Positions 5,565-48,513 of a stretch of DNA of 64,000 bases are shown here, one piece after another. The notes under the pieces were generated by a model, which was not told where the DNA came from, ran no database searches, and was given only the letters and a program-made list of their open reading frames with translations. This DNA is from Candidatus Woesebacteria bacterium (GTDB lineage Bacteria; Patescibacteriota; Microgenomatia; UBA8517): contig CP065002.1 of assembly GCA_016700095.1 (NCBI GenBank), positions 867,141-931,140 of the forward strand, read 5' to 3'. Within the stretch, counting starts at the first letter, position 1. Each line of letters opens with the position of its first letter. The position numbers were made by a program, and so were the translations under genes.

Positions 5565-6396
5565 CGGGAGTCAGGAGTTTTCTTTTAATTTTTTTAAGCG
5601 GTGTTTCAAATACAGCTCTTTTTTTGAATGAAGTTTTCATTATGCACCAAGGTGATCTAACAAAAGATGGTCGTTCTCTGAAAAAACTTTCCGGGTAATA
5701 GTAATTTTTTGCTACTTCAATTCCCATTTCATACTTTAGTTTTTTCTTACGTTTTGGTACCAACAAATCACCTTTGTCACCATGTGATCTTTGCAAAAAA
5801 GTCATATGCATATAGGGGGCGTGTATAAATTTGATTTTACGCGCAGATCTGTCCTGAATCATCTTCTTGTCCTTATCCGACCAACCCCATGTACCATGTG
5901 GATTTGTCGACGATAGACCGGGAATCATTCTGTTTATTCCCCTTAATCCCAAATGACCCTTTTTCCCCGCAATTTGATAATTGCCAGCGCTTTCATCCTG
6001 GTAATGAAAGATATCTCCTACCATATTTATACTGGGAACAAACACTGACTCGTACGTGAGTCCTCGTACTTGTCTTATGAAATCCGTAATGTCGCGTATT
6101 GATTTTTCCCACCATACTTCATCTGCATCCACAACCATAAACCAATCCGTATTTGTCGCACTTAACATGTCGGCTCGAACCTCTCTGAATTGTTCCGGAT
6201 TAACTTCGCCAACTAATTTTAGATCGATTTTATTAGGATAACGGTGTTTCAACTCTTTAGCAATTAACACACTATCATCCGTACTCCCCGTATCCCACAA
6301 CAACAACTTGTCAACGTAATCAATTACGCTTTGTACCGAATACCACAGAAAACGGTCTTCATTTTTAAATAAAGTATGTACTGATATGGTGTTCAC
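5551..6396 (-). CDS. GT-A-like glycosyltransferase (DXD-containing), family uncertain
   Basis: TLFKNEDRFL...LLWDTGSTDDS...FMVVDADEVWW matches the GT-A nucleotide-sugar binding layout. Confidence 0.5.
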   Translation of the reverse strand: MNTISVHTLFKNEDRFLWYSVQSVIDYVDKLLLWDTGSTDDSVLIAKELKHRYPNKIDLKLVGEVNPEQFREVRADMLSATNTDWFMVVDADEVWWEKSIRDITDFIRQVRGLTYESVFVPSINMVGDIFHYQDESAGNYQIAGKKGHLGLRGINRMIPGLSSTNPHGTWGWSDKDKKMIQDRSARKIKFIHAPYMHMTFLQRSHGDKGDLLVPKRKKKLKYEMGIEVAKNYYYPESFFRERPSFVRSPWCIMKTSFKKRAVFETPLKKIKRKLLTPGVGY

Positions 6397-7697
6397 TTTG
6401 ATTTATTAAACTCGTAAATTACACATACATAAGTTGCGATAAACAAAAATAAATTACTTAATCCTCCAACTATTACCGGAGCAAAAACACCTCGTGTCGG
6501 CGTTAGATATATGATGCCCAAAATTACAAACGGCAGCTGAATAAAGGTAAGCAAAGTAATGAGTTTAGGCTTCGAAAAAGCGTATATTAACAAATTAACA
6601 GACGGCACCGACAACATAAAAGGAATAGATCCGGCAATAAGCCATTTTAATAAACCACTTGCAACACTGTACTTGTCACCAAAAAACGCTATCACATACG
6701 GAGATACTACGATTCCCGCAAGCAGACCAAAACACATGAGTACAGTCAACCATACAGTCTTCATGAAATATTTTTTTAAGTCATTACTTTTCAAACTGGC
6801 ATATCTCGGAGCTAACACTCTCGCAAAACTTCCGGCAAGAAGCGGAATTCCAAACGACAATTGTCTTGCGGCAGAAAATATCCCTGTTTGGTAGGGCGTC
6901 AAAACTTGCAGTAATAAAATCGTATCAATTCGCCCATTTACGGCACCAGCGATACGTGACAACGCCATCCAAGAAGAAAAGTTAACAAACCCCTTCTCGA
7001 TATTTTTATAATTAATACGAAAAACTACCTGTGTTTTTTGCCAAAAGAAAGCAATAATAAAGGAAATAATATAGCTACCTGCATATACCATCATCGTATT
7101 TATTAACGTCAAGCCAAAGAATGACGACATCATTAAAGTTAGTGCAAGTCTGATTCCACCAATCAACATACTCAAAAGTGCTGATAATCCAAAATTTTTC
7201 TGCGATTGAAAAACTTGTATTTGAAAATCGACAATTAGAAAACCTGCAATCGCCAAGGCCGAAAACACGGTAAGCATCTTTTCTTCTGACTTTAAAACAA
7301 ATGATGAAATAACAGGCGACAACAAAGTAAGCACGACGATAAAAATACAAGCCGAAATAATACGTATTGCAAATACCGTATTTAGAGTTTCTTGTGCTTT
7401 GTCAAACTTTTTTTCTTTCAAATAGTTGGAGACATATCTAAACAAAGTTGATCCCAAACCCATATCACCTATCGCTATCATTATCGCAATGAAACTTAAT
7501 GCAGCGGAAATAATACCGAAAAGTTCAGGTCCCAGTTCTCGTCCGGCAAGTATCGTAAACATAATCGTAAATAATGATGCAATTATGCTCCCCATAAAAA
7601 GAACAGCTGTATCTTTAAAAGTATTTGAGAGAATGATGTTTCTAATTTTTGTTATCATGTTGAACTTTTTTTTCAGGACTAAACCAAAGCGCGACAA
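6393..7697 (-). CDS. Wzx-like oligosaccharide/polysaccharide flippase (MOP superfamily)
   Basis: 434 aa with about 12 TM helices. The N-terminal region with K/R-rich loops is typical of the polysaccharide biosynthesis protein (Wzx) family. Sits inside the glycosylation operon. Confidence 0.6.
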   Translation of the reverse strand: MSRFGLVLKKKFNMITKIRNIILSNTFKDTAVLFMGSIIASLFTIMFTILAGRELGPELFGIISAALSFIAIMIAIGDMGLGSTLFRYVSNYLKEKKFDKAQETLNTVFAIRIISACIFIVVLTLLSPVISSFVLKSEEKMLTVFSALAIAGFLIVDFQIQVFQSQKNFGLSALLSMLIGGIRLALTLMMSSFFGLTLINTMMVYAGSYIISFIIAFFWQKTQVVFRINYKNIEKGFVNFSSWMALSRIAGAVNGRIDTILLLQVLTPYQTGIFSAARQLSFGIPLLAGSFARVLAPRYASLKSNDLKKYFMKTVWLTVLMCFGLLAGIVVSPYVIAFFGDKYSVASGLLKWLIAGSIPFMLSVPSVNLLIYAFSKPKLITLLTFIQLPFVILGIIYLTPTRGVFAPVIVGGLSNLFLFIATYVCVIYEFNKSK

Positions 7698-10350
7698 TGG
7701 CTATAACAACAAGAGACAATGTCGTGTAATACAAACCCCATCTTACATACACTTGTGGTCCGAATTCCAGTTTATATGGAGAGTTTGATGGTTTTATATA
7801 AAAAGCATTTACCATGGAATACGCTGGGATGCTTAATGACGTACTTTGTAAATATGTAATTCTCCAACCGGGATGGAATGCGTCGGTAAATACAATCCAT
7901 CCGTTTTCTTTTTGTGGACTTAACTCATACACAGTCGGGTTTTTCTTTTCAAATTCTAGATTGCTAGATGCGGGTGGTTTATCATTTGTATCATCAGCAT
8001 ACACACGCACACCAAAGTGAGCCATGTAAGTCGAGGAATGGTTTTTTGCTTTATTCCATTCATCGGCGGTAATAAGTGCGACTGTATTAACAGAATTTAT
8101 TCCACCTAGATTTGTAATCGTAAGTTTATTGTCACCATCAAATAGTTTAATGCCTTGTGTGAACCATCTGAATTGCGTCTCACCACTATCTTTATTAAAA
8201 GCTTCACTTACAATCTCACCTTGTTCATTGCCTATTTCATATCTTAATTTCGAATCCATGCCCCCCAAACTTCGTATCGCAAGAATATAACTGGCATCCT
8301 GTACTTCGCCAAAATTAACGACAATTTTTTCACCAATTTTTTCTGAGAGAAATGATCCCAGACGATAATCAAAAGTTTTTGTTTTAATGCCTCGAATTAA
8401 TAACTGGTATTTAAAATCTAAATATTTATCATTATTAAAATACGCCCATTCACTCGCAAATTTTTTAGGGTCAACATAATCCTTTTGTAGAAAAGTCATT
8501 GTAAAATCATCCTCGTTGGTTCCATTAAAAATAATGGTTGCGCTTTCTGAAGCAATTTTATCCAGCAAAAGCGGATTCCACAGACCGTCTTCGAAATACG
8601 CGTTGATTTTGTTAGGCAAACCATCATCGCCAAACTCGGTTTCAATCTCAGGTCCGACTACAGCCAGTAGTTCATCCGCCTTAAATATTCTTGGTACACT
8701 ATTATCAATTTTATAAAAGGAAATATCGTTACTGTCGCGTTCTTTTTTCAACTCAGTATTATTGTTTAGTGCCATTTGCAATCTGTTCCAATCTTTTTGT
8801 TCTTCTCCATTTAACTTATATGGATTTCTGTGATCTTTGGATAATACAAGATACTTAATTCCCAACAATCGATACCAAGCTATATATTTATCGGTTTGAT
8901 AAATGTAATTATATTTATCTGAACTTCCAACAGTCAGATTAGCCAGAGGTCGAAGATTAGGCATATCACTTGCATTTAAAGCTGGGTTGTTCTCGGTTTC
9001 AAAGGTCGAAGGATGTTTGTCCGGGAACCAGAGTGAGCGATAATATTCATGATCCTCACTTAATATGGTGTTTATTTCACTTAGTTCATCGGGGTAATTT
9101 CTTATCGACAAAACAAAATTCATATTCCCGAGCATCGCCGGCGCTACCAGGAAGAGTAGATAAATATACGCAAATAAAGTAATACTTTTACCAAGAAGCG
9201 TATGTTTTGACAACTTGTCGCAAATTGTAGTTAGAAAACTACCCATTGAAATTCCCGCAAGTAACATTACCGGAACAAAAAATTTACTGTTATCTCGAAA
9301 CGACTCACCAAACGGTAAATTCGTTACTGCAAACGAGTATATATTTCCCATTGGCGGAGTTGCCCCCTTAAGTAAGAAAATCAAAAATAGCAAGATAAGA
9401 ATGATTTTAAGTTCACGCTTATCTTTACTGCTAAACAAATTTCCAAAAACCGTAACAGGAATTAGTAAAAAATACCATGCAGGGTACGTGATTTCGCCAA
9501 AGATATTTTTATACCAATGAGGCTGATAGAAAAATATGCCGTTCACAAACGAAATAAAATTCAAATTGGTGACAAAGGAAGCTGAATTTTCAGGATGAAT
9601 TTTTACTAAAGGAATTATCCAATACGAATTAATACATATCCAAGGCAACACAATTAACAATAGATTTTTTATTATCAAACGCCATTTACCGGGTGCTTCG
9701 ATAAAACCCACAAGTAATGCAACAAAAAGAGCAATCAATGCGATCCGTGGATCGGCAATCGTATTTAGAGTGAGAACAAAAAGAGCAAGGAAATATTTTT
9801 TCGGGGATAATTTGGAAATAACGTTGGTTAGTGTCAGTATCGTGAATGGAAATATTCCATAAGAAAGTGCAACACCAACCTGACCACCATCAATTAGTAG
9901 TATGAAATATGTATTTAGTGTGTAAAACAACGAAGCAAAAAACCATACCAACGGTGGATACTTTAATTTTTTTGCAAGATAAATAGGCCCAATAAGTGAA
10001 AGGATGATTGCTGGGAAGAAAAATAATAAGTTAATGATTATATTGTTGGGCAAACCGAGGTATTTACCCATAATTCCATAGAGCATTAGGATTGGTTTAA
10101 TAAAAAGCCTCGGATCGATTGTTCCTAAATTACCATCTCTGTTTATCCAGGAATACGGTTCACTGAAAAGATCGGTAAACTCACGATTCGTAAAGTTGGG
10201 TGCATCACCCCACGACAAATCGGTGTGAATAATGAGGGGATAGAAAACGATAATAACAGGAATAAGTAAACCAATAATAAAAAACGCTACATCGGCGACC
10301 TTATAAGTCCCTGGTATATTAATGCGAATCTTGTCAGTTTTCTTTTGCAT
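7642..10350 (-). CDS. Giant polytopic membrane protein (902 aa), putative GT-C glycosyltransferase (AftD/YfhO-like architecture) with a large extracytoplasmic C-terminal domain
   Basis: About 14 TM helices in the first 420 aa, then a roughly 480-aa soluble region. The N-terminal loop carries a WGDAPNF...D-rich motif. Confidence 0.45.
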   Translation of the reverse strand: MQKKTDKIRINIPGTYKVADVAFFIIGLLIPVIIVFYPLIIHTDLSWGDAPNFTNREFTDLFSEPYSWINRDGNLGTIDPRLFIKPILMLYGIMGKYLGLPNNIIINLLFFFPAIILSLIGPIYLAKKLKYPPLVWFFASLFYTLNTYFILLIDGGQVGVALSYGIFPFTILTLTNVISKLSPKKYFLALFVLTLNTIADPRIALIALFVALLVGFIEAPGKWRLIIKNLLLIVLPWICINSYWIIPLVKIHPENSASFVTNLNFISFVNGIFFYQPHWYKNIFGEITYPAWYFLLIPVTVFGNLFSSKDKRELKIILILLFLIFLLKGATPPMGNIYSFAVTNLPFGESFRDNSKFFVPVMLLAGISMGSFLTTICDKLSKHTLLGKSITLFAYIYLLFLVAPAMLGNMNFVLSIRNYPDELSEINTILSEDHEYYRSLWFPDKHPSTFETENNPALNASDMPNLRPLANLTVGSSDKYNYIYQTDKYIAWYRLLGIKYLVLSKDHRNPYKLNGEEQKDWNRLQMALNNNTELKKERDSNDISFYKIDNSVPRIFKADELLAVVGPEIETEFGDDGLPNKINAYFEDGLWNPLLLDKIASESATIIFNGTNEDDFTMTFLQKDYVDPKKFASEWAYFNNDKYLDFKYQLLIRGIKTKTFDYRLGSFLSEKIGEKIVVNFGEVQDASYILAIRSLGGMDSKLRYEIGNEQGEIVSEAFNKDSGETQFRWFTQGIKLFDGDNKLTITNLGGINSVNTVALITADEWNKAKNHSSTYMAHFGVRVYADDTNDKPPASSNLEFEKKNPTVYELSPQKENGWIVFTDAFHPGWRITYLQSTSLSIPAYSMVNAFYIKPSNSPYKLEFGPQVYVRWGLYYTTLSLVVIAIVALWFSPEKKVQHDNKN

Positions 10351-10496
10351 GTAATGTTAATTTATAAATTGTTAATCCAAGCAAACCAAGGTAGAGGTAT
10401 TTTGATAATTGAATTGCCCGACCGGGGTGATGTGTGGCAAGAAAAAAACAAACTATAAATAGAATTACCGATGTTATACTTACTAATACACGTTTC
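10351..10496. promoter_or_regulatory. Divergent intergenic region between the 902-aa GT-C gene (minus) and the YfhO/GT39 pair (plus). Presumed bidirectional promoter.
   Basis: This is the only strand switch to plus for multi-gene transcription in the first 30 kb. AT-rich with TATAAT-like hexamers. No experimental support. Confidence 0.3.
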
Positions 10497-12458
10497 ATGA
10501 TCAAATTACCAAAGGTATCAACACGCAGTTTAATGCCGTACTTTTTCATAATTCTATCGACTATAGTATTATACCTCCCGGTTTTAATAAATAGTGATCT
10601 TTTTTTGAATAGAGGTAACGACTTAACCGAATTCTTCTGGCCGATTTATTTATATGTCAAAAACCAGATTTTAGCGACACATAAATTGCCATATTGGAAT
10701 GGCATGTTCTTGTCAGGTGTGCCACTTTTACCTGACCCCCAATCGCCTATCTTTTATCTTCCCAATATCATTTTTATGGTCTTGCCCATCGGAGTTGCTT
10801 TTATCATTTCATCGATAATACATACTGCATTTGGGGGAATCGGAACATATTTGGTATGCTACAAGGGACTAAAATTTAAGCTACTACCTTCATTGTTTGG
10901 ATCCTTTGCATATCTACATCTGGCTCGGTATAGCGGCTTCATAGAAGCCGGTCATTTCGGCTTAATAGCGGCCACAACATACATTCCTTACGTTTTTTTA
11001 TCACTAATTATGATCTCAAGAAATCCCTCCCTCACATGGTCGGTAATTTTTGCTTCAAGTTTAGCGGGTATATTTTTCACTCACCCGACAACATTTGTAT
11101 ACGCAGCACTTTTTTCATTTCCGGTATTTTTCACTCTTACTAATTTAACTAGGCGAGCACATAAAACTTGGCTTTTTTATATTATCGGCGGACTTATTTC
11201 ATTTGGATTTACGGCAATAACACTGTTACCTCAATTAAACTGGGTTCCTCAAACTAATAGATTTTTATTATCGGTTGATAAAGATGTATACCCCAAGTGG
11301 AATTCTATTGGCGAATATGCTCAAAGCATTTTCGCTCCGTGGCTTAATGGCATATCAGGGATTAGATCGATCGACTCGGAAAAATGGCTTTTTATTGGTA
11401 TATTGCCAAGTATATTGGCGGTATATGGTTTTACGCAAATTAAAACCGCAAAGAAGAAAGTATGTATAATGCTACTTCTATTTACCTTTGCCCTATTTTC
11501 TCTAAATAACTTGTCACCATTTTACACTGCGCTTCTTAATCAAAATTGGTATGTTTTCGGCCGTGTCTCAACGCGAGTATGGTTTATGGTTTCTTTTCCG
11601 ATTATTTTGCTGGCAACATATGCAATTAATGTTTTAAGCACTAAACACACCAGATTAGCTTACATTCTTGCAATGCTAGCAGTTGTTGAGATTACAACAA
11701 TTTCACTAAGCCACATTACCAAACCGATACGTAACGATAGACTTATAGCAAGTAAAAACGTCTTGTCTTTTCTTGCAAACGACAAAGATAGATTTAGAGT
11801 ATTTTGTACCACCAGATGTTTCTCTCAAAAGGATGTAGCCGAATACGGCTTAGAAACAATCGAAGGATACTCGACCCTGCACCAAAAAAATTATTACCAG
11901 AGTGCATGGGGAATGACCGGAGCTTATTGGAATTATTACACACTCACGCTTCCGCCAATCGGGTCATACAAATATGGGAAATTAGATCCAAATTATGAGA
12001 GTCTGGGCAATTTCAATACAAAATATATCGTATCGCCTTATGAAATAGTCCATTCCGATATCGTGTTTCTTACTGCTATTGATGGTTTTAATATTTATTC
12101 TAATAATAAATACAAACCACGTGGTTATTTTGTTGAAAACGACAAAACGCAGACAGCCGATATTAAATACTACTCTCCCAACAAAATCGTTATTAACGTC
12201 AACACCACATCAAAACATCTAATTCTCGCCGAAGTGTTTAGCCCCGGATGGATTGCTTTGGCCGACACGAAAAAAGTGCAAGTGCAAGAAACCCCCAATG
12301 CACAAAGAGCAATAGATTTACCATTAGATACTAAAATGGTTGAATTATATTATCAACCCGTCGGATATAATTTGGGAAAAACTATTACTGTTGCGACTTT
12401 GATTGGTTTATCGTTCTATGTATTAAGTGTTAACTTGAAGAAAATCAAACTACCTTAA
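10497..12458 (+). CDS. YfhO-family membrane glycosyltransferase (GT-C-like)
   Basis: FFWPIYLYVKNQILATHKLPYWNGMFLSGVPLLPDPQSPIFYLPNI closely resembles the conserved YfhO N-terminal signature (hexose-P-C55-dependent glycosylation of teichoic acids). The ORF track start at 10434 is a GTG codon. ATG codons at 10497 and 10536 are more plausible starts. Confidence 0.6.
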   Translation: MIKLPKVSTRSLMPYFFIILSTIVLYLPVLINSDLFLNRGNDLTEFFWPIYLYVKNQILATHKLPYWNGMFLSGVPLLPDPQSPIFYLPNIIFMVLPIGVAFIISSIIHTAFGGIGTYLVCYKGLKFKLLPSLFGSFAYLHLARYSGFIEAGHFGLIAATTYIPYVFLSLIMISRNPSLTWSVIFASSLAGIFFTHPTTFVYAALFSFPVFFTLTNLTRRAHKTWLFYIIGGLISFGFTAITLLPQLNWVPQTNRFLLSVDKDVYPKWNSIGEYAQSIFAPWLNGISGIRSIDSEKWLFIGILPSILAVYGFTQIKTAKKKVCIMLLLFTFALFSLNNLSPFYTALLNQNWYVFGRVSTRVWFMVSFPIILLATYAINVLSTKHTRLAYILAMLAVVEITTISLSHITKPIRNDRLIASKNVLSFLANDKDRFRVFCTTRCFSQKDVAEYGLETIEGYSTLHQKNYYQSAWGMTGAYWNYYTLTLPPIGSYKYGKLDPNYESLGNFNTKYIVSPYEIVHSDIVFLTAIDGFNIYSNNKYKPRGYFVENDKTQTADIKYYSPNKIVINVNTTSKHLILAEVFSPGWIALADTKKVQVQETPNAQRAIDLPLDTKMVELYYQPVGYNLGKTITVATLIGLSFYVLSVNLKKIKLP

Positions 12459-12489
12459 TTATGATTGCAAATTATTGCATGTTTAGTCA

Positions 12490-13980
12490 ATGAAATTAGT
12501 AATTTACAAAAACTACAAGATTATTTTAATATTAGTACTTTCTAGTTTACTACGTTTTTCCAACTTGCCTGCAAAAATTACTTTTACCGCAGATGAAGCA
12601 TATCTGTCCTACGTCGCCCAAACACTGATTAAAAACTTCCACATCATATGGATTGGTTGGAGTGCATTAGGGTTTGACGTTTACTTAGGGCCCTTATGGA
12701 TATATGTCATTTATCCATTTCTATATTTATCGCACGGAAATCCCATTATTCTGGGTTATATTTCCGGTTTTCTTGGAGTACTAACAACTTTTGCAATTTA
12801 TAAAATCGGCTCTAAATTTTTTAATCACCAAGTAGCCATCTTGTCATCACTAAGTTACGCACTATTGCCCTTATTAATTTATTATGATCAAAAACCTTAT
12901 CCACCCGCCATACCACTTATTAGTCTTCTTGTGACATTTGCTTTACTGAAAGTAAGAAAAAGCGCCAAGTGGTGGGTCGTAATTTCATTTCTTTATGGAC
13001 TGGTTTTTAATATTCACCTTTCATTGGTTTTACTTGCTTTTCCTATCCTTTACGCATTATTTACTGGAAAAAAATATCTTAACAAAAAAATATTAGTCAG
13101 TTCATTTCTGGTATTTATTGTTACCGTTTCACCGCTTATTGTTTTTGATTATTATAAGAAAGGGTACAACATACAAGCTCCCCTAAGAGCGTTTAATGCT
13201 AGTCAAAACTCTACCGAAAAAACCTCCGGTCATTACGACGAATTGTTTTCTTCCTTTGGACGAATTTGGTATTTGAATTCATTTAGTGAAGTCGCCGACG
13301 AAATAATACCAACATGCAAAGAAAATGCGCTATCGACTTACTCACGACCTCCGCTTGGCATATCTATCGTTTCGTTGGCAATTTTTATATCCTTTGCTCT
13401 TAATAAAAAAACATGGAAGGATTATTCGCGTAAAATGTTACTTTTTGTCAGTTTAACATTTATCATTCCTTTTACGTTAGTTACCGTTATTAATCCTGTT
13501 GAATATTATCTGCTGGGGTTTTTCCCGATTTTACTCATTATTACATCAGTAGTTATTTACGACCAAAGAAAAATAGTCAAGATGTTTTTATTGCTACTTA
13601 TGTTTTCGTGTTTGATCTATGCACCATTCGTAACCCTAAGAGCAAATACAAATTACGGTCTTGAGGCAAAAAAAGAACTGGCTCAACAAGTTGCCCAATT
13701 AGTCGACGGCAAACCTTATTACCTGCAAGCCCGTGGCGGTTGTCAAAGCGTGGGTGGATGGCGATATCTTTTTTCCATCTATGGGCAACGACCCGCAAAA
13801 AGCTATGACGACGTAAGTTTTGGCTGGCTTTATCCTGATGAAATAACAAGTGAAAAAAGCGTTTACGAAGTATTAGTTGTTGAGAAACGGGCAAGTGATC
13901 ACACTAATTTATATACTAATTACGTTAACAAGGTAACATCCGGGGGTTATGAGGCTTTGATTTATAAAATTAGTGATTAG
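12490..13980 (+). CDS. GT-C glycosyltransferase, ArnT/PMT (GT39/PMT_2)-like
   Basis: N-terminal TM helix then FTADEAYLSYVAQ (DE motif), with more than 10 TM helices after it. 496 aa. Confidence 0.65.
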   Translation: MKLVIYKNYKIILILVLSSLLRFSNLPAKITFTADEAYLSYVAQTLIKNFHIIWIGWSALGFDVYLGPLWIYVIYPFLYLSHGNPIILGYISGFLGVLTTFAIYKIGSKFFNHQVAILSSLSYALLPLLIYYDQKPYPPAIPLISLLVTFALLKVRKSAKWWVVISFLYGLVFNIHLSLVLLAFPILYALFTGKKYLNKKILVSSFLVFIVTVSPLIVFDYYKKGYNIQAPLRAFNASQNSTEKTSGHYDELFSSFGRIWYLNSFSEVADEIIPTCKENALSTYSRPPLGISIVSLAIFISFALNKKTWKDYSRKMLLFVSLTFIIPFTLVTVINPVEYYLLGFFPILLIITSVVIYDQRKIVKMFLLLLMFSCLIYAPFVTLRANTNYGLEAKKELAQQVAQLVDGKPYYLQARGGCQSVGGWRYLFSIYGQRPAKSYDDVSFGWLYPDEITSEKSVYEVLVVEKRASDHTNLYTNYVNKVTSGGYEALIYKISD

Positions 13981-14705
13981 GTGTGTAACTTTTTTGATAT
14001 ATACCTAGTCCAAAATACCAGAATATATGTTTGAATAAATATCGCCCATTTAACGGTTTGCAAATAGTTGCCGACTATCGCCGATTCACCGACTCTTTGT
14101 AAATATGTTACAGGTACTTCAACGAATGAAAGTTTGTTGGAAACGGTAAGTAAGGTTAATTGAGTATTAAAAAGAGGCGACTTCTCAAATCCCCACTTCC
14201 TTTTAAGAATATTTAGAGCTTTTCTAGAAAACAATTTATAAGTACAGCCCACATCCGTTAAAGCGTTGGTATTAAAAAGCACTTCAATAGTTTTTGCTTC
14301 AATTACATTGGCAAATTTACGAAACACGCCCATACCGGCACCGGAGAGTGACGAAATTAAACTCGTACGTGAACCAAGTACTACTTCAAAATCATTTGAG
14401 TAAACCAGTAGTCGCTCCAGGTCTTTTGCCAAAAAGCTTCCATCCGGTTCACACGCCACTATAAGATCACCTCTTGCCGTGTTTAATCCCTTCTGAAAGG
14501 CATATCCATATCCCTGGCGATCTTCGTATACTATTTTTACACCGGTTTTATTTACTTCTTGGTCTGTACCTTTTTGGGCATTATTGTTTACTACTATGAT
14601 TTCATCAACAAATTGTGTTTTTTGAAAACTTTCGATTACTCTGCGAATCGTTTTTTTCTCGCGGTATGTGGCTAAAACTAAAGAGACTGTTTTTCCTTTA
14701 TACAT
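13977..14705 (-). CDS. GT2, DPM1/GtrB-like polyprenol-phosphate sugar synthase (soluble form)
   Basis: VSLVLATYREKKTI...EIIVVNNN...ACEPDGSF; 242 aa. The Gtr-like arrangement with the adjacent small membrane protein and GT-C is described in the findings. Confidence 0.65.
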   Translation of the reverse strand: MYKGKTVSLVLATYREKKTIRRVIESFQKTQFVDEIIVVNNNAQKGTDQEVNKTGVKIVYEDRQGYGYAFQKGLNTARGDLIVACEPDGSFLAKDLERLLVYSNDFEVVLGSRTSLISSLSGAGMGVFRKFANVIEAKTIEVLFNTNALTDVGCTYKLFSRKALNILKRKWGFEKSPLFNTQLTLLTVSNKLSFVEVPVTYLQRVGESAIVGNYLQTVKWAIFIQTYILVFWTRYISKKLHT

Positions 14706-14707
14706 AT

Positions 14708-15139
14708 TTATTTACATTTATAAAATTCATAAACCGATATTGTGAGCCCCAAGATAAAAGCCTGAAACATATAAATCATTGTTCGCTCGGCCCACACGCC
14801 AACCCCTAGAGCGAGCAATAATTCCGCAAAGGCTAAAAAAAACAACGATATCACAAAAATAACTTTGCTAGTTGCCCCAAGCATTATTACGGCAAGAATC
14901 AAACTAATCATGACAATAATATTTATCGTTAGTGGCAAAAAGGGGTGAAAATATCCGGCAGAATGAAGCAAGACAAGAAGTATTAGAATAATATTATAGG
15001 TAAATAGACCGGAAAGATGTTTATTTGCCCATGCTTTTGTTTTGACCTCTTTATGTCCCCAAAAGGTTCTTGACAGTCGTTTATTTATGTACTTTTTTAG
15101 ATCTTTTAACATAATTATAAAGAGGAAATATGAGCACAC
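14708..15139 (-). CDS. Small 3-4 TM membrane protein, possibly a GtrA/GtcA-like lipid-sugar flippase. Function unproven.
   Basis: 143 aa with hydrophobic helices. Sits between a GtrB-like GT2 and a giant GT-C. No recognisable GtrA signature, and the true start is uncertain. Overlaps the 3' end of the upstream gene. Confidence 0.3.
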   Translation of the reverse strand: MCSYFLFIIMLKDLKKYINKRLSRTFWGHKEVKTKAWANKHLSGLFTYNIILILLVLLHSAGYFHPFLPLTINIIVMISLILAVIMLGATSKVIFVISLFFLAFAELLLALGVGVWAERTMIYMFQAFILGLTISVYEFYKCK

Positions 15140-18038
15140 ATATCACAACCGTCGCCAAACTTACAAATAGTCCAAAGTAATAATATTTCTGTGTGGTATA
15201 GAATATTGTAAATTCCTGTGTAGTGCTATTCCCGGGCATATACCAAGCGTTTGCGTATCCATGGGCACTAAAGTGTAGTGGTTTTCCCAAATATGAGGCG
15301 CTAACGATATTCCAGTTCGGACTATATTTTTCCAAAAACACTAGCAAGTAATTATCATTGATATTTTCCACCTTCACCTTGTACTTCGTTGGGTTAACTT
15401 TTGTAAAAGATACCGTTGGAGTATGTATCGTGTCAGCATTTTGTTCTATTAAAAAAAGCTTATTATCATAGATACGCTTAAAGGAGATATTTTCAAAATA
15501 TGTTTTACTTCTCTTCTCCCGACTATCAACTGGGATTTCTATCACCACATTCATCGTTGAACTTGCTCTGACTGGTTCAACAAAAATTTCTTTTTTATTC
15601 CAATCGGTATCTTCATCGACTTTAGTGGGTAAAACCTTATACTTCGCAGCTCCGCTTTCTTGGACTATATTAACATTCGGTGTATTACCATAGATATATT
15701 TGTATTCATATGAGAACAGATAATTGGCGTATGGATTGAATTCATCTACCGGGACAATTAGACTCTTCTCATTAATACCATCATTAAACACGATCAACAC
15801 ATTGTCGTTATTCAATAATTCTTCTCCTTTGATATGGAGATTTTCATTTCCCTTTAATACCAGATCTTTGCTGATCAGGTTACTGTTCTCAGGATAAACA
15901 ATATCCACATTATGTTCACCCTGCGTGACCTTAATATTTTTGAGTATGTAAAATGTATCGGTTTCAACAATTTCTGTATCTTTATTTAACAGATCCGGGA
16001 AAATTACGCTTAGATCACTTCCGTTGTAACCTCTTTTTTCGATCGCTAATTCATAAATTCCCTCAGGAACATTTATTAAATACCTTTGACGATTTCCAAC
16101 CGGATTACTGCCATAGGTCGTATTGTCTAACTGGAATATGTTTTTCTTGATATCTTGCGAATTATCTATCTTATTTACTTCACTGTCACCAGCGAGAGTA
16201 ATTACGCGATTTGGATCAAGATATGGCAGTAACGTATCAAATACAGAATCATCAGAATTATTTGTATATAGTCCGTTTGCAGTAAGAATTTTACCAGGAT
16301 AGTCAGCATTTTGGTAAAAAGTCCATTCACCGAAAACCAGTTTATCTTTTTCCGGTATTTCTTTTGAATGATATATGGATACGGCGTCATTTTTCATGAA
16401 TAAAGTATCAGCATTCAAAAACGATAGAGACTTAAATACCGAGTCGTAATTCTCCTGTTTGATATTATTATAGATTCCTTGCAATATAGGCTTTAGTCCC
16501 TTACCCAGAAAAACAAAGGATGGTGCCACGGTTTCTTTGGACGAAAATAGATTAAGAACGGTTTCTGTACCCCTATATCCCCATTTAAACTGTTCCAGTT
16601 CATCCTCGGGATAAACAACGATACGAGCACTACTCTCACTATTATCAAGATATTTTTTTGTTTCCCATACATAGTCGGGGATTTTAACAAAAAAACTATC
16701 TGATTTTTGTGGACGAAATATTTTACCTGTTATAAGTGGATACTCATAAAGTAAGCCTCCAATTACAAAAATTACTACTCCCAAATATATCAAGCGCTTG
16801 CCAAGTATTATATTGAGAATTTTCTTGTCACCAAACCTTTTTAATATATTTTCAACAAGTAATCCGGAAAGCACGGCATATGCCAATATCACGTAAGGCG
16901 TAAATATATACCATGGACTTCTGAAAAACGAAAAGTACGGTATATATTTAGCCATCAAATTATATAAACTACCTGTTGGTTCATGTAATCCGGCTCCCAT
17001 AAAGATACCGATTACCAACATAATTCCTGTATATACATACAAATAGTTTTTCTTATTGTTTAGTAAGATGTAGGAAATAATTACAAGCGTTGGAACAACA
17101 AAACTAAACAGAATAAAGGGGAGTTTATAAAAATAGTTTAATGCGTATGGAATATACATCGGAAAACCCGATTGATCAACGGCATACCAATCCCAAGCTC
17201 CTTGTAATCTAATAACATTCAGAAGGCTGGTGTTTTCAGATAATGCCGCAACCCAGTTTGTATATCCAATATTCTCCAGAGTTAATACTGCTCGATCCGC
17301 TAGCATAAAGTGCGAAAACGGTACAACCCAATATAAATTTGACATAATGATAACTACACTCATTAACATTGCACCTAAGAAGATATGTCTGATTTCTCGT
17401 TTTCTAAAAGGTAATATTGTTAGAAAGTAAATTATCACTCCACCCATTAATGTAATAATATATGCAGGATTTATCCCGGCACCTGAAGTAATCATGGAAA
17501 ACAAAACACTATAAAAGAGTAACTTCCCATTCGATAGGGCATCAAATACATATCGATTGGCTAACCCAATAAATAGCGGTAAACCTACCATAACTGCGAG
17601 GTTAGCAACTTTAACGTTTTCCCATGTGTTGAACAAATAAATATTATATGTATAAATAAATACAAGTATTAGCTGAGCAAGTTTATTGTTTTTAAGAAAG
17701 GTTCGCGAAAGATAATAAGAACCAAAAACAATTGAAGAAAACCAAAATACAAGTGAGATTATTTGCACATGCCGTAAATTAAATCCCAAAACATGAGGTA
17801 TAACTTGAATCAAATGAAAAAACCAACCGGAAGTTGACGTTGTCGCATCCGCGCCGGTTCCAATTGTGTCATTCCAAACAAAAAAGCGTCTTTCAAACCA
17901 GACCAGAGGATCAAGTGGAAAGTTGGTATCTAGTCCATTAATGATGACATCGGGTCTACCAACAAACCACAGCAATGGAGTTAGTGACATGGCAAACATT
18001 ATAATTGTAAGCCAATGCTCTTTAATTATTTGTTTCAT
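15081..18038 (-). CDS. Giant GT-C-like membrane glycosyltransferase (985 aa), AftD/DUF3367-like
   Basis: The N-terminal loop GRPDVIINGLDTNFPLDPLVWFERRFFVWNDTIGTG resembles the DTKLDL...W.P..G.G signature of alpha-(1->3)-arabinofuranosyltransferase-like proteins. About 14 TM helices and a roughly 550-aa extracytoplasmic C-terminus. Confidence 0.5.
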   Translation of the reverse strand: MKQIIKEHWLTIIMFAMSLTPLLWFVGRPDVIINGLDTNFPLDPLVWFERRFFVWNDTIGTGADATTSTSGWFFHLIQVIPHVLGFNLRHVQIISLVFWFSSIVFGSYYLSRTFLKNNKLAQLILVFIYTYNIYLFNTWENVKVANLAVMVGLPLFIGLANRYVFDALSNGKLLFYSVLFSMITSGAGINPAYIITLMGGVIIYFLTILPFRKREIRHIFLGAMLMSVVIIMSNLYWVVPFSHFMLADRAVLTLENIGYTNWVAALSENTSLLNVIRLQGAWDWYAVDQSGFPMYIPYALNYFYKLPFILFSFVVPTLVIISYILLNNKKNYLYVYTGIMLVIGIFMGAGLHEPTGSLYNLMAKYIPYFSFFRSPWYIFTPYVILAYAVLSGLLVENILKRFGDKKILNIILGKRLIYLGVVIFVIGGLLYEYPLITGKIFRPQKSDSFFVKIPDYVWETKKYLDNSESSARIVVYPEDELEQFKWGYRGTETVLNLFSSKETVAPSFVFLGKGLKPILQGIYNNIKQENYDSVFKSLSFLNADTLFMKNDAVSIYHSKEIPEKDKLVFGEWTFYQNADYPGKILTANGLYTNNSDDSVFDTLLPYLDPNRVITLAGDSEVNKIDNSQDIKKNIFQLDNTTYGSNPVGNRQRYLINVPEGIYELAIEKRGYNGSDLSVIFPDLLNKDTEIVETDTFYILKNIKVTQGEHNVDIVYPENSNLISKDLVLKGNENLHIKGEELLNNDNVLIVFNDGINEKSLIVPVDEFNPYANYLFSYEYKYIYGNTPNVNIVQESGAAKYKVLPTKVDEDTDWNKKEIFVEPVRASSTMNVVIEIPVDSREKRSKTYFENISFKRIYDNKLFLIEQNADTIHTPTVSFTKVNPTKYKVKVENINDNYLLVFLEKYSPNWNIVSASYLGKPLHFSAHGYANAWYMPGNSTTQEFTIFYTTQKYYYFGLFVSLATVVICVLIFPLYNYVKRSKKVHK

Positions 18039-19680
18039 ATTCTTTCTTTATTTCATCAGTAATTTCAATTAATGATTCAATATCTCCTTGCCATTTATAG
18101 GCTATAATTGCATTACTTGGAATATTATATTCTTTTATTGCATTAAATAACTTATCTTTATCTCTAAAGTATCCAAAACCTCGACCGTCATACTCTTTGT
18201 AACCCTCCTCTTTGATCTCCCAAAGAAATTTGTTTTCATAAAATTGGACAGGAAGTTTTTCCTCGCTATACCAAACCAATAAAGTCTGGCCCAATCCTGA
18301 TTGAAAAGGTAATATTTTGTCGGTTTCTGGAAGTCCAAAATAAGAAGTATCGCTTTGGGTATAAAAAACTACCCTGTCAGGTAATTTGGTATGGCTGGCT
18401 TTAACTGCTAGTAATATATTTTTGCGTATTATTCCATAATCAACAAGTGTTTTAATTTGTCCAGTTAGGGCAACAATGTTTGTAATTATAACTATCGAAA
18501 GCGCGATATGTTGTGCTTTTTTATTTTTAAAAAGAGAATCCACTATCATAATAAGGAGTATAAACACTCCAACGCTTGTTAAGTATAGATTTCTCGAGTC
18601 GAGAACATTAATCTTTCCAAACCGCTCTGGGGACAAAGCATATATTAAGCTGTTTAAAATTACATAAACATAGAAGAACAATATTATATTTTTCTTTTCT
18701 TTGTCTTTGTGTCTTATGTACACAATATATATAAGGTATGAAAATATTACAAAAAAGGCTAAGGATAACCCCTCAAGAATTATTTTCTGTGCAAACAAAT
18801 CAAAGGTGGTTGTCCCAATAACAGGTCGTAACGATTCGGGTATTTTCGCCGCAATGAAATAACTAATTTTTATGAAGTACTGCAGGGGAATCACTGTTTG
18901 CGTAACAGTCTTCATGGGAAACGTAAGTAAGTTGTAAGTAATATCGGTCAAGCTTTGAGTTTCTGTTATCATGGGAGTAGCTCCGACGTTGTGTATAAAT
19001 AACATACCCGCTCGAAGTACAAAAAAGGATACTCCTGTTGCCAATGTTGCTATAAGTTGTTTATGTTTATTTTTGTTATTACTTAGATACAAGATTAGGG
19101 CATACAAAGCAAACATACCAATAGCGATTTCTTTGAACAATAAAGCGGCGATAAGCAACACAATCGAGTATGACCATCTGCGAAAATTTCCAGTTTTTCC
19201 ATATTTTATAAAATAATAGATAGAGATCAACGTGAATGAGGTTGCTCCATGTGTATTAATATTTGCCCCAACCCACGTGGTTGCTTGATAAATTGAAGCG
19301 GAAACACCAAATAGTAATGCAACTATCGATGCATAATATTTCCGCTTTAAATTCAATAAGACTAACTTGTAAACAAGAACAACATTTACTAAGTGCCACA
19401 CTAAACTTGCTCCAAACCACATTTGGTAATTTAAGTTAAATAACTTAAATATTGTTAGAAATACTATTCTTTGAAGTGGATTGTAATGATTTATTTCTAA
19501 TCGAAAGTAGCTAATTACCGTCACAAGAGGATTCTTTCCGACATCTCCCAAAACATCCGCAAACGCCAACCATTCATCTTGAGCAAAAAACGATTGGAAA
19601 CATCTTATGTAAGAAAGACATACTACCGCCAAACATGCAAACAAACCATATTTATCTAGATATTTACTTTTATTTTCCAT
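18022..19680 (-). CDS. GT-C-like membrane glycosyltransferase of the 'FxQD(D/E)' subfamily
   Basis: FFAQDEWLAF follows the first TM helix. About 11 TM helices and a roughly 150-aa soluble C-terminus. Paralogous N-terminal motif to the genes at 23351..25321 and 25318..27987. Confidence 0.45.
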   Translation of the reverse strand: MENKSKYLDKYGLFACLAVVCLSYIRCFQSFFAQDEWLAFADVLGDVGKNPLVTVISYFRLEINHYNPLQRIVFLTIFKLFNLNYQMWFGASLVWHLVNVVLVYKLVLLNLKRKYYASIVALLFGVSASIYQATTWVGANINTHGATSFTLISIYYFIKYGKTGNFRRWSYSIVLLIAALLFKEIAIGMFALYALILYLSNNKNKHKQLIATLATGVSFFVLRAGMLFIHNVGATPMITETQSLTDITYNLLTFPMKTVTQTVIPLQYFIKISYFIAAKIPESLRPVIGTTTFDLFAQKIILEGLSLAFFVIFSYLIYIVYIRHKDKEKKNIILFFYVYVILNSLIYALSPERFGKINVLDSRNLYLTSVGVFILLIMIVDSLFKNKKAQHIALSIVIITNIVALTGQIKTLVDYGIIRKNILLAVKASHTKLPDRVVFYTQSDTSYFGLPETDKILPFQSGLGQTLLVWYSEEKLPVQFYENKFLWEIKEEGYKEYDGRGFGYFRDKDKLFNAIKEYNIPSNAIIAYKWQGDIESLIEITDEIKKEYETNN

Positions 19681-20707
19681 ATGTTTTCAGTTCAGTTTTT
19701 ATATTAAATACGTATTTAATGTAATAATACACTATAGTTATCAAAGTAAAATAAACTAATAAAGGATGAATCATGTATACATAATTTCTTTTGGAAATGG
19801 TAATTCGAACACCGTCAACAAGTGGAAATATTAGTGACATACCATACAGAATAAATAAATATTTTCGAAGCCTTACATCACTGTTGGTTAGTACTTCTCG
19901 GCCGACATACCCACCCTTTCCCATGTCCGACCTAAAAATGTTGTTTTTAACGCGCGACACAATCTTTTTCACATATGTAGCCAAACTAGTGGTTGAATAA
20001 TGAAGAGTTGGATCGTTTTTTGTGATTGCGACAAGTTGCTTATCTTTTATCAGTAGGTAGAAAAGTAATGCTATATATTCAGGATGTTTCGATAAATGCG
20101 GATAGTGTTTCTTCGTGTATGTTGCATCAATCATGCACCCTCCCGCCCAGAGCTCAAATACACTACTGTTAGAGGAATTTGCAAAATCAAATATAACACA
20201 ATCTTTTGTTTCGTTAATTACACGATATTTATTTCTCAGCGATGTGATTAATGATTTATCGTCTTTGGATTCCTTGTAAACAAATTGCGTAAAGGGGTCA
20301 CCGAAGCTATTTATGTAGTAGTTAATTTTTGAATAGTTCAAAGGTGTTTTGTACCCAGTGGTGATAACTGCACGCGTATTTTTTTGTGTCTTAATGGCTT
20401 TTAGTTTTAATTCAACACTATTTACATTTTCCAAAACTTCATCGCTGTCTATAAAAATAATGTAATCCCCGGTCGCCTTGTTGTAACCCACCTGTTTCCC
20501 ATATATTAAATCAACTTTATTATTACGATATATTTTACATTTGTATTTTTTACATATAGCTAGTGTCGTATCTGTCGAACCTCCGTCAGCAATTAAAATT
20601 TCTATGACGGCACGTGTTTTTTGTTTTCTTATCGAACTAAGAGTTTTTTCGATAGTCCTAGAAGAATTCAAAGTTGGTATTACAAAGCTTACTTTATCTT
20701 TTTTCAT
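19670..20707 (-). CDS. GT2 glycosyltransferase with a C-terminal TM helix
   Basis: VSFVIPTLNSSRTI...ILIADGGSTDTT...IFIDSDE (DXD), with a hydrophobic C-terminal segment. Confidence 0.75.
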   Translation of the reverse strand: MKKDKVSFVIPTLNSSRTIEKTLSSIRKQKTRAVIEILIADGGSTDTTLAICKKYKCKIYRNNKVDLIYGKQVGYNKATGDYIIFIDSDEVLENVNSVELKLKAIKTQKNTRAVITTGYKTPLNYSKINYYINSFGDPFTQFVYKESKDDKSLITSLRNKYRVINETKDCVIFDFANSSNSSVFELWAGGCMIDATYTKKHYPHLSKHPEYIALLFYLLIKDKQLVAITKNDPTLHYSTTSLATYVKKIVSRVKNNIFRSDMGKGGYVGREVLTNSDVRLRKYLFILYGMSLIFPLVDGVRITISKRNYVYMIHPLLVYFTLITIVYYYIKYVFNIKTELKTYGK

Positions 20708-20735
20708 TATTGGTTGTAAAAACTTTTAACCATTG

Positions 20736-21050
20736 TTATCGCGTTTTTTCGTGTTCGAGATATTGGTTGCATGGTAAATTTACTTTCGTATTCGCAATTT
20801 CCTCGGTAATTGGAAAACCACCTCTTTTATACCCTATTTCTTGATATGCGAGTGACAAATGTGGAAATGGTAGTTGATCGCAAGTTATTACCGCATGTCC
20901 ACCTCTTGGAACGTCCTTGAAGATTTTATGCATATAAAATTCCCGTTTGAATTTAAATCTAGAATTTTTTCCACTTTCGATTATTGTTAAATTGCCACGT
21001 TCATCTAATATGGTTTGGAGTTTAGTGAATTTGCACTTTTTTATGTCCAT
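20736..21050 (-). CDS. FdtA/WxcM-like cupin (sugar 3,4-ketoisomerase family), apparently truncated or degenerate after about 75 aa. Possible pseudogene remnant.
   Basis: [11 protein letters not shown]...[10 protein letters not shown]...PRGGHA matches the FdtA/QdtA N-terminal half. The conserved HxxKxxxQ...GLYIGP..W C-terminal half is absent; only 104 aa are present versus about 135 expected. Confidence 0.4.
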
Positions 21051-21106
21051 GGATTCTCAATACAGTTTTCAGCAAAGTATACAATATAGTTGCTATAATT
21101 ATATAT

Positions 21107-21574
21107 ATGAATAGTGATGTTTTTATCCATCCACTTTCGGATGTGAGGACAACCAACATTGGTTCAAAAACTAAAGTGTGGCAATTTTCAGTTATTCTTG
21201 AAGGGGCAGTTATCGGAAAAAACTGTAATATCAATTGTCAAACCTTCATCGAAAACGACGTCGTTATCGGCGACAATGTCACGGTAAAATGCGGTGTTTA
21301 TATCTGGGATGGAATACGGTTGAAAGACAATGTCTTTATTGGCCCAAATGTCACTTTTACTAACGATAATTTTCCGAGATCGAAACAATACCCGGAAAAA
21401 TATTTACCGATAATCATAGAAAAAGGTGCTTCGGTCGGTGCAAACTCCACTATTCTCGGCAATATTACAATAGGGGCAAACGCAATGATTGGAGCAGGTA
21501 GTGTGGTTACAAAAAACGTACCACAAAATCAACTTTGGATGGGAAGTCCGGCAAGATGTGTTAAAGAAATATGA
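21107..21574 (+). CDS. Left-handed beta-helix (hexapeptide-repeat) sugar N-acetyltransferase, FdtC/WxcM/PglD-like
   Basis: Repeating [LIV]GxN[VC]x[IV] hexapeptides ([50 protein letters not shown]). 155 aa. Confidence 0.7.
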
Positions 21575-22050
21575 ATATAAATATTGTTTACAACCACCTG
21601 ATTACCCTAAGAGCGAGAATAAGATCGCAGTTCTGGAAATTGTTTCTCAAAAGAATGGGAAAACATGTTGATATTATGGGGAATGTAAAAATCATGAGTC
21701 CGCAAAAAATATCAATAGGAAATAACGTGCTAGTAAATTCGGAAAGTAAATTAGGTGGGCAATGCGGTATCGAGATTGGAAATGATGTGTTGATTGGCTA
21801 CAACGTAAATATCGTTTCGCAAAATCATGCGTATGACGACAGGAACATACCAATTAAAAATCAAGGATTTTACGGACGGAAAATTGTAATTAAAGACGAC
21901 GTATGGATTGGTGCAAACGCCGTAATTCTTCCCGGTGTTACTCTTGGAAAAGGATCCATTGTGGGTGCCAACGCGGTTGTGACAAAAGATGTTGAACCTT
22001 TCACAATAGTGGGCGGAGTACCGGCAAAATTAATAAAACAAAGAATCTAG
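21571..22050 (+). CDS. Hexapeptide-repeat O-acetyltransferase (LacA/NodL/CysE-like)
   Basis: [33 protein letters not shown]...GGVPAKLI is the classic maltose/galactoside acetyltransferase C-terminal signature. ATGA overlap with the preceding acetyltransferase. Confidence 0.8.
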
Positions 22051-23156
22051 TTTTTTAATAAATAGTTCACGATAATTTCCGACGGTTTAATATTAGTTTT
22101 TACAGGTTTTCTTCTTCTTTTTTTATAGTCGGTAAGAAAATCATTTATGATTCCGGTGTCTCCTTTTGACAGTACTACATTTTCGTTTAACCCCTCAATT
22201 TGCTCAGTGTGTTCTCTTAACAACAAACACGGTTTCCCCATTAAGTAAGCTTCAAACTGATTTGTCGCCCCATCGGTTGCGATATATTCAGCTTTTTCCA
22301 TTAATTTAATAAAGGTTGAATAATTAATCAAAGGCATTATTTTTATATTCTTATTTTCCATATCCAGCGATTTAATTATTTTTACTGTGATAGGGTGATT
22401 AAACAGCACACACACAAGTTTCTTTTCTGAATTATCTATCACAGTTTTAATTATCTTTTTCGACCAATTTTTGCGAAATATTACATGTTCTTGTCTGTGT
22501 AATATTAAAATGTAATATTTCTGTTTTGGTATAACATTTTTTTGAATAGTTTGTTTCTTATACCAATTAAACCCTTCAAGTAAAGTATTGAAATGGGTGT
22601 TTATTTTGGGTTTATGGATATTTTTGAGATTATTTGTTGCCCATGTACTCGGAGGAAACAACACATCGGCAAGTCGAATATTGATATTCCTACAAATTTC
22701 TTCGGGAAACGGTTCTTTCAAATTCTTAGACAAATCTCCACTTTCTATGTGAATAATTTTTATGTGTAATATCTTGGCGATAATTGCACCAATTGTAGTT
22801 GTAACTGGATCGCCATATATAATTAAATTGATATTTTTTCTTGCCTGCATTTTTTCTTTATGCAAGATATCAAGACCGAGAATAAAAGCTTTGACCGCCC
22901 ATATTCCAAAACGGAATACTGAAGGCTTAGTGCTTTTGTTTATAAGTAAAGTCGTTTCTAATTGTCCAGTATACTTTTCAACCTCTTTTACGCGAACATT
23001 GTTTTGACCGGACAAAATAATTTTATATTTTTGATTTCTTTTCTTTAGTTCTATCAATATCGGAGCAACACGAATTAATTCAGCGGTAGTGCCAACCATA
23101 AAAACAAAAAGTGTTTTTCTTTTTGTTTGATTATTAACTTGCTTTGTCATTTTCAA
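22047..23156 (-). CDS. UDP-N-acetylglucosamine 2-epimerase family protein (WecB/NeuC-like, Epimerase_2)
   Basis: [50 protein letters not shown] and [24 protein letters not shown] align with WecB VLTVFGTRPEAIKMAPLV, VHGDTTTTLA...VGHVEAGLRT and SPWPEEANR...HFSPTE. Confidence 0.7.
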
Positions 23157-23350
23157 GTAAGTGCAATTTTATATCTTATATATTACTGTTACAATCATTT
23201 CCTAAAAACATAATATGCGATAAATATCTATTTTCATGTCAAGTATAACTAGACTTATAAGTCTTTATAATGAGAGGAGAATTATACGAGTACGCGAAAT
23301 TTTATTAAGAAACCGCATAAATCCCATATTTTTTATCTTTCACTTTAATT

Positions 23351-48465: not shown

Positions 48466-48513
48466 ACAATCTTGTACGATTATACTGCAGAAAAATGAAG
48501 CGATACAGCGCAA

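Follow-up and report, generated by a model that had tools for sequence, protein, structure and literature searches.

Do three neighbouring genes in a small bacterial genome make up a single glycosylation module, and is the largest of them an arabinofuranosyltransferase? The question is raised by a 64-kb stretch of DNA (positions 1-64000, hereafter the window) from a groundwater Candidatus Woesebacteria (Microgenomates, Patescibacteria) with a genome of 1.27 Mb. A first-pass annotation had noted three consecutive open reading frames (ORFs) on its minus strand, and we found all of them again: a frame of 985 amino acids (aa) at 15081-18038, one of 143 aa, counted from a GTG start, at 14708-15139, and one of 242 aa at 13977-14705. 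They had been read as an AftD-like GT-C glycosyltransferase, a GtrA-like membrane protein and a DPM1/GtrB-like GT2, acting together. We favor a different arrangement, with a probability of roughly 0.55 for the whole: an AftD-fold GT-C enzyme with a dedicated small membrane partner in an envelope-glycan island, and a GT2 that serves a separate GT-C of the GT39 type.

We began with the 985-aa protein (15081-18038, minus strand). It scored 31.0 bits (E = 8.6e-8) with PF11847 (GT-C_AftD, formerly DUF3367), whose gathering cutoff is 26, its residues 172-531 aligning to profile positions 153-488 of 661. By that cutoff it belongs to the Pfam family of AftD, the arabinofuranosyltransferase D of M. abscessus and M. 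tuberculosis (PDB 6W98 and 6WBX). Public annotation has this assignment too: NCBI, whose entries QQS38601-QQS38615 fall in the region, lists a protein 100% identical to it as 'DUF3367 domain-containing protein'. An NCBIfam scan returned no model for it. Its full-length homologues number at least 329, with identities of 34-50%, and those with a named source carry Microgenomates-type labels in nearly every case. About half of the homologues have a precomputed PF11847 match, and NCBI gives some of them the name 'alpha-(1->3)-arabinofuranosyltransferase family protein'. The loop NGLDTNFPLDP...WNDTIGTG, which had first suggested AftD, corresponds to residues 34-62. When 30 homologues (34-49% identity) were aligned, G35, D37, N39, F40, P41, L42, P44, W47, R51, W55 and G62 of this loop were invariant, as were the charged residues E140, K143, D283 and R373. 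D37, in the first outer loop, is the candidate catalytic aspartate.

An AlphaFold2 model of the protein, built with 30 homologues as input, was good, with a predicted local distance difference test score (pLDDT) of 83.4 and a predicted template modeling score (pTM) of 0.80. Two fold searches with this model both ranked AftD first. In the Foldseek search of the PDB, AftD 6W98 was the top match (E = 5.8e-20), STT3B was the next family (5e-6), and PglB and ArnT came after. By our count, the model has about 11 N-terminal transmembrane (TM) helices, then an outer alpha/beta domain and beta-sandwiches resembling carbohydrate-binding modules (CBMs), and finally a single C-terminal TM helix. The soluble region with the beta-sandwiches occupies residues ~440-948, the last helix residues 949-984, and nothing follows it; structural and profile matches of CBM type span the soluble part. 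The AftD structure preprint (bioRxiv 10.1101/2019.12.22.885152) describes the same elements in AftD, namely a GT-C core of ~11 TM helices whose first outer loop holds an acidic residue, an extensive soluble part outside the membrane that includes CBM-like beta-sandwiches, and one TM helix by which the chain returns to the membrane. The label 'AftD-like GT-C', as the first-pass annotation had proposed it, is therefore right for the fold and general layout.

Membership in the characterized AftD group is weak, because identity to AftD is 11-12% and neither a phmmer search of PDB sequences with the 985-aa protein nor an hmmsearch with the 30-sequence family profile found AftD at E <= 10. AftD is actinobacterial and ~1400 aa long, whereas this protein is shorter and comes from a Patescibacterium. 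With no direct sequence link between them, the essential residues of AftD (K39, D41, E251, K361 and D474) could not be mapped onto the 985-aa protein, although in its first outer loop the family-invariant D37 is similarly placed.

The second gene encodes a small membrane protein. Gene callers and NCBI place its start codon, an ATG, at 15112, so that the product has 134 aa (14708-15112, minus strand; 'hypothetical protein IPM62_04460'), where the GTG at 15139 would give 143 aa. Of the protein first described as having 143 aa and three to four TM helices, the length therefore changes to 134 aa, while a real, conserved gene with four TM helices stands. Homologues that share 37-50% identity with it, and whose profile E-values reach 1e-49, occupy the same position in related genomes, so this is not a chance ORF. 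In its AlphaFold2 model (pLDDT 92) the N-terminal helix is basic and four TM helices follow; by the positive-inside rule both termini are predicted to be cytoplasmic, and the two conserved motifs of the family, LLxSAGYFxPF and VWAERTxIY, are predicted to lie in outer loops. The family is narrow, with 36 close members and 60 representatives in a profile search of 1.84e9 proteins, almost all of them stand-alone proteins of 52-206 aa.

In its size (~120-140 aa) and its four TM helices the small protein resembles GtrA, but the GtrA profile (PF04138) matched none of the 36 family members, even at E <= 10, and the protein does not belong to the GtrA family. No Pfam domain was found in the members of the family; the window protein gave a noise match to Fumarate_red_C (E = 0.02), and the family profile searched against the PDB likewise gave noise only. 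The one longer protein among the 60 deserves mention here. P0212, a 334-aa protein (L034 5001-6005; also in L035 and L036), has an N-terminal part that weakly resembles the small family (E = 2.7e-4 library-wide) and carries a ...RVLAEEMAVYAYYMF... motif, followed by a weak LytR_C domain. Its gene lies two downstream of that for a 909-aa relative of the 985-aa protein and of the 902-aa protein described below. P0212 could connect the small family with the attachment of cell-wall glycopolymers.

We then compared gene order in 26 genome loci and 5 metagenome loci. The small gene could be tested in 24 of the genome loci (L004 and L017 end too early) and the ortholog of the 552-aa gene that precedes the 985-aa gene in the window in 25. 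The small gene lies directly downstream of the 985-aa gene in 23 of 24 loci, the exception being L021, and it also follows a 985-aa homologue in L028 and in L033, where it is a distant member. Its ATG overlaps the 3' end of the 985-aa gene by 4-35 nucleotides (nt) in 21 of 23 loci (32 nt in the window), a pattern that argues for translational coupling of the two genes. An ortholog of the 552-aa gene lies immediately upstream in 23 of 25 loci. The conserved core is thus the 552-aa protein, then the 985-aa protein, then the small protein, and among the at least 12 GT-C-like genes of the window the small gene accompanies the 985-aa type only. The 552-aa protein (18022-19680, minus strand) is polytopic and presumed to be a GT-C, its PMT_2 match (E = 0.0033) falling under the cutoff; NCBI calls it 'hypothetical protein'. 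Our literature search returned nothing on AftD-like proteins of Microgenomates and met DUF3367 only in unrelated work, and no earlier description of a conserved unit of a GT-C and a small partner appears to exist.

Two of the loci differ from the common pattern. At L021 (8001-12769) the small gene is absent, and 80 nt after the 985-type gene comes a convergent gene of the 674-aa type (see below). The most divergent locus, L027 (4918-14280), shows local duplication in the 985-aa family: after tandem paralogs at 4918-7887 and 7965-11108 come a small gene, itself divergent (E = 4.5e-12), and next a paralog of the 902-aa type. Many of the records (L003-L007, L010, L013-L017, L019, L021, L023-L025 and L027) are titled 'uncultured Gammaproteobacteria bacterium' (third-party-annotation metagenome-assembled genomes) despite their Microgenomates-type cluster, and these titles are probably placeholders or wrong taxonomy.

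The third gene did not behave as part of this core. The order 985-aa, small, GT2 occurs in the window genome alone among the 26 related loci; an ortholog of the 242-aa GT2 adjoins the small gene in none of the 23 others and lies within 8 kb of it in only two. The proposed three-gene module is therefore not a conserved one. The GT2 instead has its own partner. Its orthologs (46-67% identity) lie tail-to-tail with an ortholog of the 496-aa GT39/PMT_2 protein, with overlapping 3' ends, in all five loci that had enough flanking sequence (the window, L008, L015, L028 and L029); the sample is small, a metagenome scan with the GT2 having yielded only 5 loci. In the window the two genes (13977-14705, minus strand, and 12490-13980, plus strand) overlap by 4 nt. 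The 496-aa protein passes the PMT_2 cutoff (37 bits against 26) and is named 'glycosyltransferase family 39 protein' by NCBI; PDB sequence searches with it and with the 552-aa protein gave no useful matches. With all five loci showing the convergent pairing, it is this GT39-type GT-C, and not the 985-aa/small pair, that the 242-aa GT2 has as its conserved partner, and the two units merely abut in the window genome.

What the GT2 makes can be approached through its relatives. It matched PF00535 (E = 2e-15), and its best NCBIfam matches were AglJ (2e-21, residues 7-210), a dolichyl-phosphate hexose transferase (1e-12) and PpgS, all far under the equivalog cutoffs. A profile of seven orthologs searched against the PDB found the Pyrococcus dolichyl-phosphate mannose synthase 5mlz (1.8e-7) and ArnC 9hwj (6e-6, residues 4-204). 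The nearest characterized relatives are thus polyprenyl-phosphate sugar synthases, which agrees with the DPM1/GtrB-like label it had been given, and a polyprenyl-phosphate sugar synthase, perhaps for a hexose as in the DPM1, AglJ, ArnC and PpgS types, is our best guess at its function. No TM helix was predicted in it, which groups it with PpgS and Ppm1 and sets it apart from ArnC and GtrB. With its convergent GT39 gene it forms a pair of exactly the type of ArnC-ArnT, PpgS(Rv3631)-Rv3779 and DPM1-PMT.

We propose that the locus is part of a conserved Microgenomates (Woesebacteria/Daviesbacteria) island whose products build or modify envelope glycans at the outer membrane face. Cytoplasmic GT2s would load sugars onto polyprenyl phosphate, and the lipid-linked sugars would then reach the outer face; in the gtrA-gtrB-gtr(type) and CsbB-GtcA-YfhO systems a cytoplasmic GT2 likewise makes the polyprenyl-phosphate sugar that a GT-C uses outside, and the same logic probably holds for the island. 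There the 985-aa enzyme, of the GT-C_A fold, would most likely take a sugar from a lipid-phosphate donor and add it to a surface glycopolymer, using D37 in its first outer loop, with the CBM-like domains presumably holding the glycan acceptor. The small protein, translationally coupled to this enzyme, would be its dedicated partner and probably a membrane subunit. The 242-aa GT2 would act on the cytoplasmic side as a polyprenyl-phosphate hexose synthase-like partner of the GT39-type GT-C, and, as the last gene of the run that includes the 985-aa gene in the window genome, it may also supply the 985-aa enzyme.

Several observations weigh against this proposal. The PF11847 match on which the family assignment of the 985-aa protein turns is modest and, covering profile positions 153-488 of 661, partial. 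Our case that the 985-aa and 134-aa proteins associate is one that we infer from the linkage of their genes. The GT2 starts only 2 nt from the stop of the small gene in the window genome, which makes local co-expression of all three genes likely and leaves some room for a gtr-like division of labor. The whole run is closely packed. The 552-aa gene extends 17 nt into the beginning of the 985-aa gene, and is itself overlapped by 11 nt by the gene of a 345-aa GT2 with C-terminal TM segments (19670-20707, minus strand; PF00535 E = 1.4e-20), which probably belongs to the same transcription unit and whose weaker relatives recur upstream in many related loci. With genes so tightly packed or overlapping, the run from ~20707 to 13977, of which the 242-aa GT2 is the last gene, is likely a single transcription unit. 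Scans of 12000-23500 were uninformative on operon structure: promoter counts were no different from those in shuffled sequence, and of the 12 terminator-like sites (6.8 ± 2.7 in shuffles) none fell at a gene boundary inside the run.

A module of the gtrA-gtrB-gtr(type) kind, in which the GT2 makes a polyprenyl-phosphate sugar, the small protein flips it as a GtrA analog without sequence similarity, and the 985-aa protein transfers it outside, would account for three genes that are contiguous and nearly overlapping in the window genome. As in gtr systems, the small four-TM gene lies between a GT-C and a GT2; the GT2 is DPM1/ArnC-like, the predicted N-in/C-in topology is that of GtrA, and no recognizable GtrA gene was found elsewhere in the 64-kb window. 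We nevertheless regard this as unlikely. If the small protein were a donor-specific flippase, its gene should go with that of the synthase, but across the related loci the small gene follows one GT-C; the GT2 has another GT-C as its regular partner, and the other GT2/GT-C pairs of the island have no small gene of this type, which together with the failure to match PF04138 sets the arrangement apart from gtr systems. The window also holds what may be a better candidate for a flippase of lipid-linked sugars, a 288-aa transporter of the EamA/drug-metabolite transporter (DMT) family (45534-46400) directly beside a PpgS-like 260-aa GT2 (46431-47213). The flippase subunits ArnE and ArnF belong to the same superfamily, and it is this relationship, with the adjacent GT2, that recommends it over the small protein.

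The other readings concern what the 985-aa enzyme uses. It could take an oligosaccharide from a polyprenyl-diphosphate carrier, as an oligosaccharyltransferase or an enzyme of polymerase/ligase type, supplied by the two Wzx-like flippases of the island (6393-7697 and 47200-48513); STT3B and PglB, both oligosaccharyltransferases, are the best fold matches after AftD, and 'oligosaccharide repeat unit polymerase' is the NCBI name of the 902-aa paralog. AftD gives by far the stronger match in Foldseek, however, and one that covers more residues, the Pfam and NCBIfam scans list no STT3 or PglB family, and the neighborhood is rich in GT2s that resemble polyprenyl-phosphate sugar synthases, so that we consider a diphosphate-linked donor distinctly unlikely. 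That the protein is a true AftD, using decaprenyl- or polyprenyl-phospho-arabinofuranose and building arabinan outside Actinobacteria, seems very improbable to us. PF11847 membership, the rank of AftD as best structural match and the NCBI names of some homologues speak for it, but those names were transferred from the Pfam family and not from tested proteins, and the low identity and missing sequence match to solved AftD, even with the family profile, speak against it. The donor of AftD is decaprenyl-phospho-arabinofuranose, whereas we found no genes for an arabinose donor near the 985-aa gene and no UbiA-type phosphoribosyltransferase, DprE1-like or GLF gene anywhere in the 64 kb; the sugar-nucleotide genes of the island point to other sugars. 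The furanose- or arabinose-type lipid-linked donor suggested earlier drew all of its support from the family name, and the name 'arabinofuranosyltransferase' should not be carried over from PF11847 to these proteins.

Returning to the AftD-fold enzyme and its small partner, the architecture of the pair suggested a closer relationship to AftD. The same preprint (bioRxiv 10.1101/2019.12.22.885152) describes an AftD chain that re-enters the membrane through the single helix TM12 and, after an 18-residue cytoplasmic loop, forms a four-helix bundle, TM13-16. This bundle, a peculiarity of AftD, packs on TM8-9, binds the phosphopantetheine arm of an acyl carrier protein (ACP) and is needed for function. 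AftD thus has 16 TM helices in one chain (TM1-11, TM12 and the TM13-16 bundle). The 985-aa protein lacks a covalent bundle of this kind and stops right after its single TM12-like helix, and the next, overlapping gene encodes a basic cytoplasmic helix and a separate four-TM bundle of corresponding topology (N-in, C-in); by our own count on the models, 11 + 1 + 4 helices would give the pair the 16 of AftD. It is tempting to see in the 134-aa protein a detached equivalent of the TM13-16 bundle, an idea we put forward tentatively and think possible though not probable. No fusion of the small domain to a GT-C was found among the 60 representatives from 1.84e9 proteins, which leaves the idea without sequence support, and no sequence similarity turned up either. 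The predicted outward orientation of the small-family motifs is also at odds with a bundle that binds ACP from the cytoplasm.

Were the 134-aa protein such a bundle, the AftD architecture would be ancient and modular, the 'regulatory' bundle would predate the actinobacterial link to ACP, and the Woesebacteria lineage would offer a natural split version in which to study it, with a handle on the poorly understood C-terminal part of a validated tuberculosis target. Even apart from this, an AftD-fold enzyme with an obligate small partner is a concrete, testable two-protein unit.

The whole window is a single glycan-biosynthesis island amounting to ~5% of the genome. Genomes of Patescibacteria (the candidate phyla radiation, CPR) are tiny, yet at least 64 kb of 1.27 Mb are given here to glycan genes, with a dozen or more GT-C-type enzymes, and glycan assembly on the outer face is for that reason clearly central to this biology, though essentially unstudied. 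The polytopic GT-C-like proteins (PMT, PMT_2, YfhO-like and DUF3367-like) are accompanied by many GT2 and GT4 genes, five of the GT2s (242, 254, 260, 306 and 312 aa) resembling polyprenyl-phosphate sugar synthases, and by four to five S-adenosylmethionine (SAM) methyltransferases. An FdtA fragment, hexapeptide acyltransferases, a DegT aminotransferase, 4,6-dehydratases and a UDP-GlcNAc 2-epimerase make up the sugar-nucleotide genes, which point to 3-amino-6-deoxyhexoses, a GDP-deoxyhexose and ManNAc as likely products. In addition to the GT2/GT39 pair at 12490-13980(+)/13977-14705(-), the window has a second convergent pair of a GT2 resembling polyprenyl-phosphate sugar synthases and a PMT_2-type GT-C at 35750-36688(+)/36689-38773(-) and a co-directional one at 28044-28808(-)/28919-30994(-). 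The repetition of such pairs suggests several independent two-component glycosylation units.

Two further membrane proteins are related to the 985-aa protein in parts. The 902-aa protein (7642-10350, minus strand) is a distant paralog with a GT-C core, a C-terminal beta-sandwich and a TM anchor in common with it; BLASTP aligned the two at the C-terminus (E = 2e-6) and across the TM core (1e-3), and orthologs of the 902-aa protein occur in most of the related loci. A weak NCBIfam match to MmpA (trehalose lipid delivery, 31 bits) looks as unreliable as its polymerase label. The 674-aa protein (10434-12458, plus strand) is polytopic with a YfhO-like C-terminal domain (Pfam YfhO E = 1.4e-5, under the cutoff), and its orthologs, at 33-44% identity, are present in many related loci. 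A (S/H)P(N/G)W motif in the C-terminal beta-sandwich and TM anchor is common to the 985-, 902- and 674-aa proteins. This sandwich and anchor recall the YfhO family (PF09586), but only the 674-aa protein matches the YfhO profile; the 985-aa protein does not match PF09586 at E <= 1.

Two smaller features of the island may be recorded. Between genes for PMT-type GT-C enzymes lies that of a 425-aa FAD-dependent oxidoreductase (56627-57904; NCBIfam PRK07233, 400 bits; 'hypothetical protein'), which is amine-oxidase/HpnE-like and by Pfam not a GLF-type UDP-galactopyranose mutase. The FdtA-like ORF (20736-21050) is only 104 aa long; it aligns to profile positions 2-57 of 131 and could be a truncated or degenerate gene, and it lies opposite two divergent hexapeptide acyltransferase genes (21107-22050).

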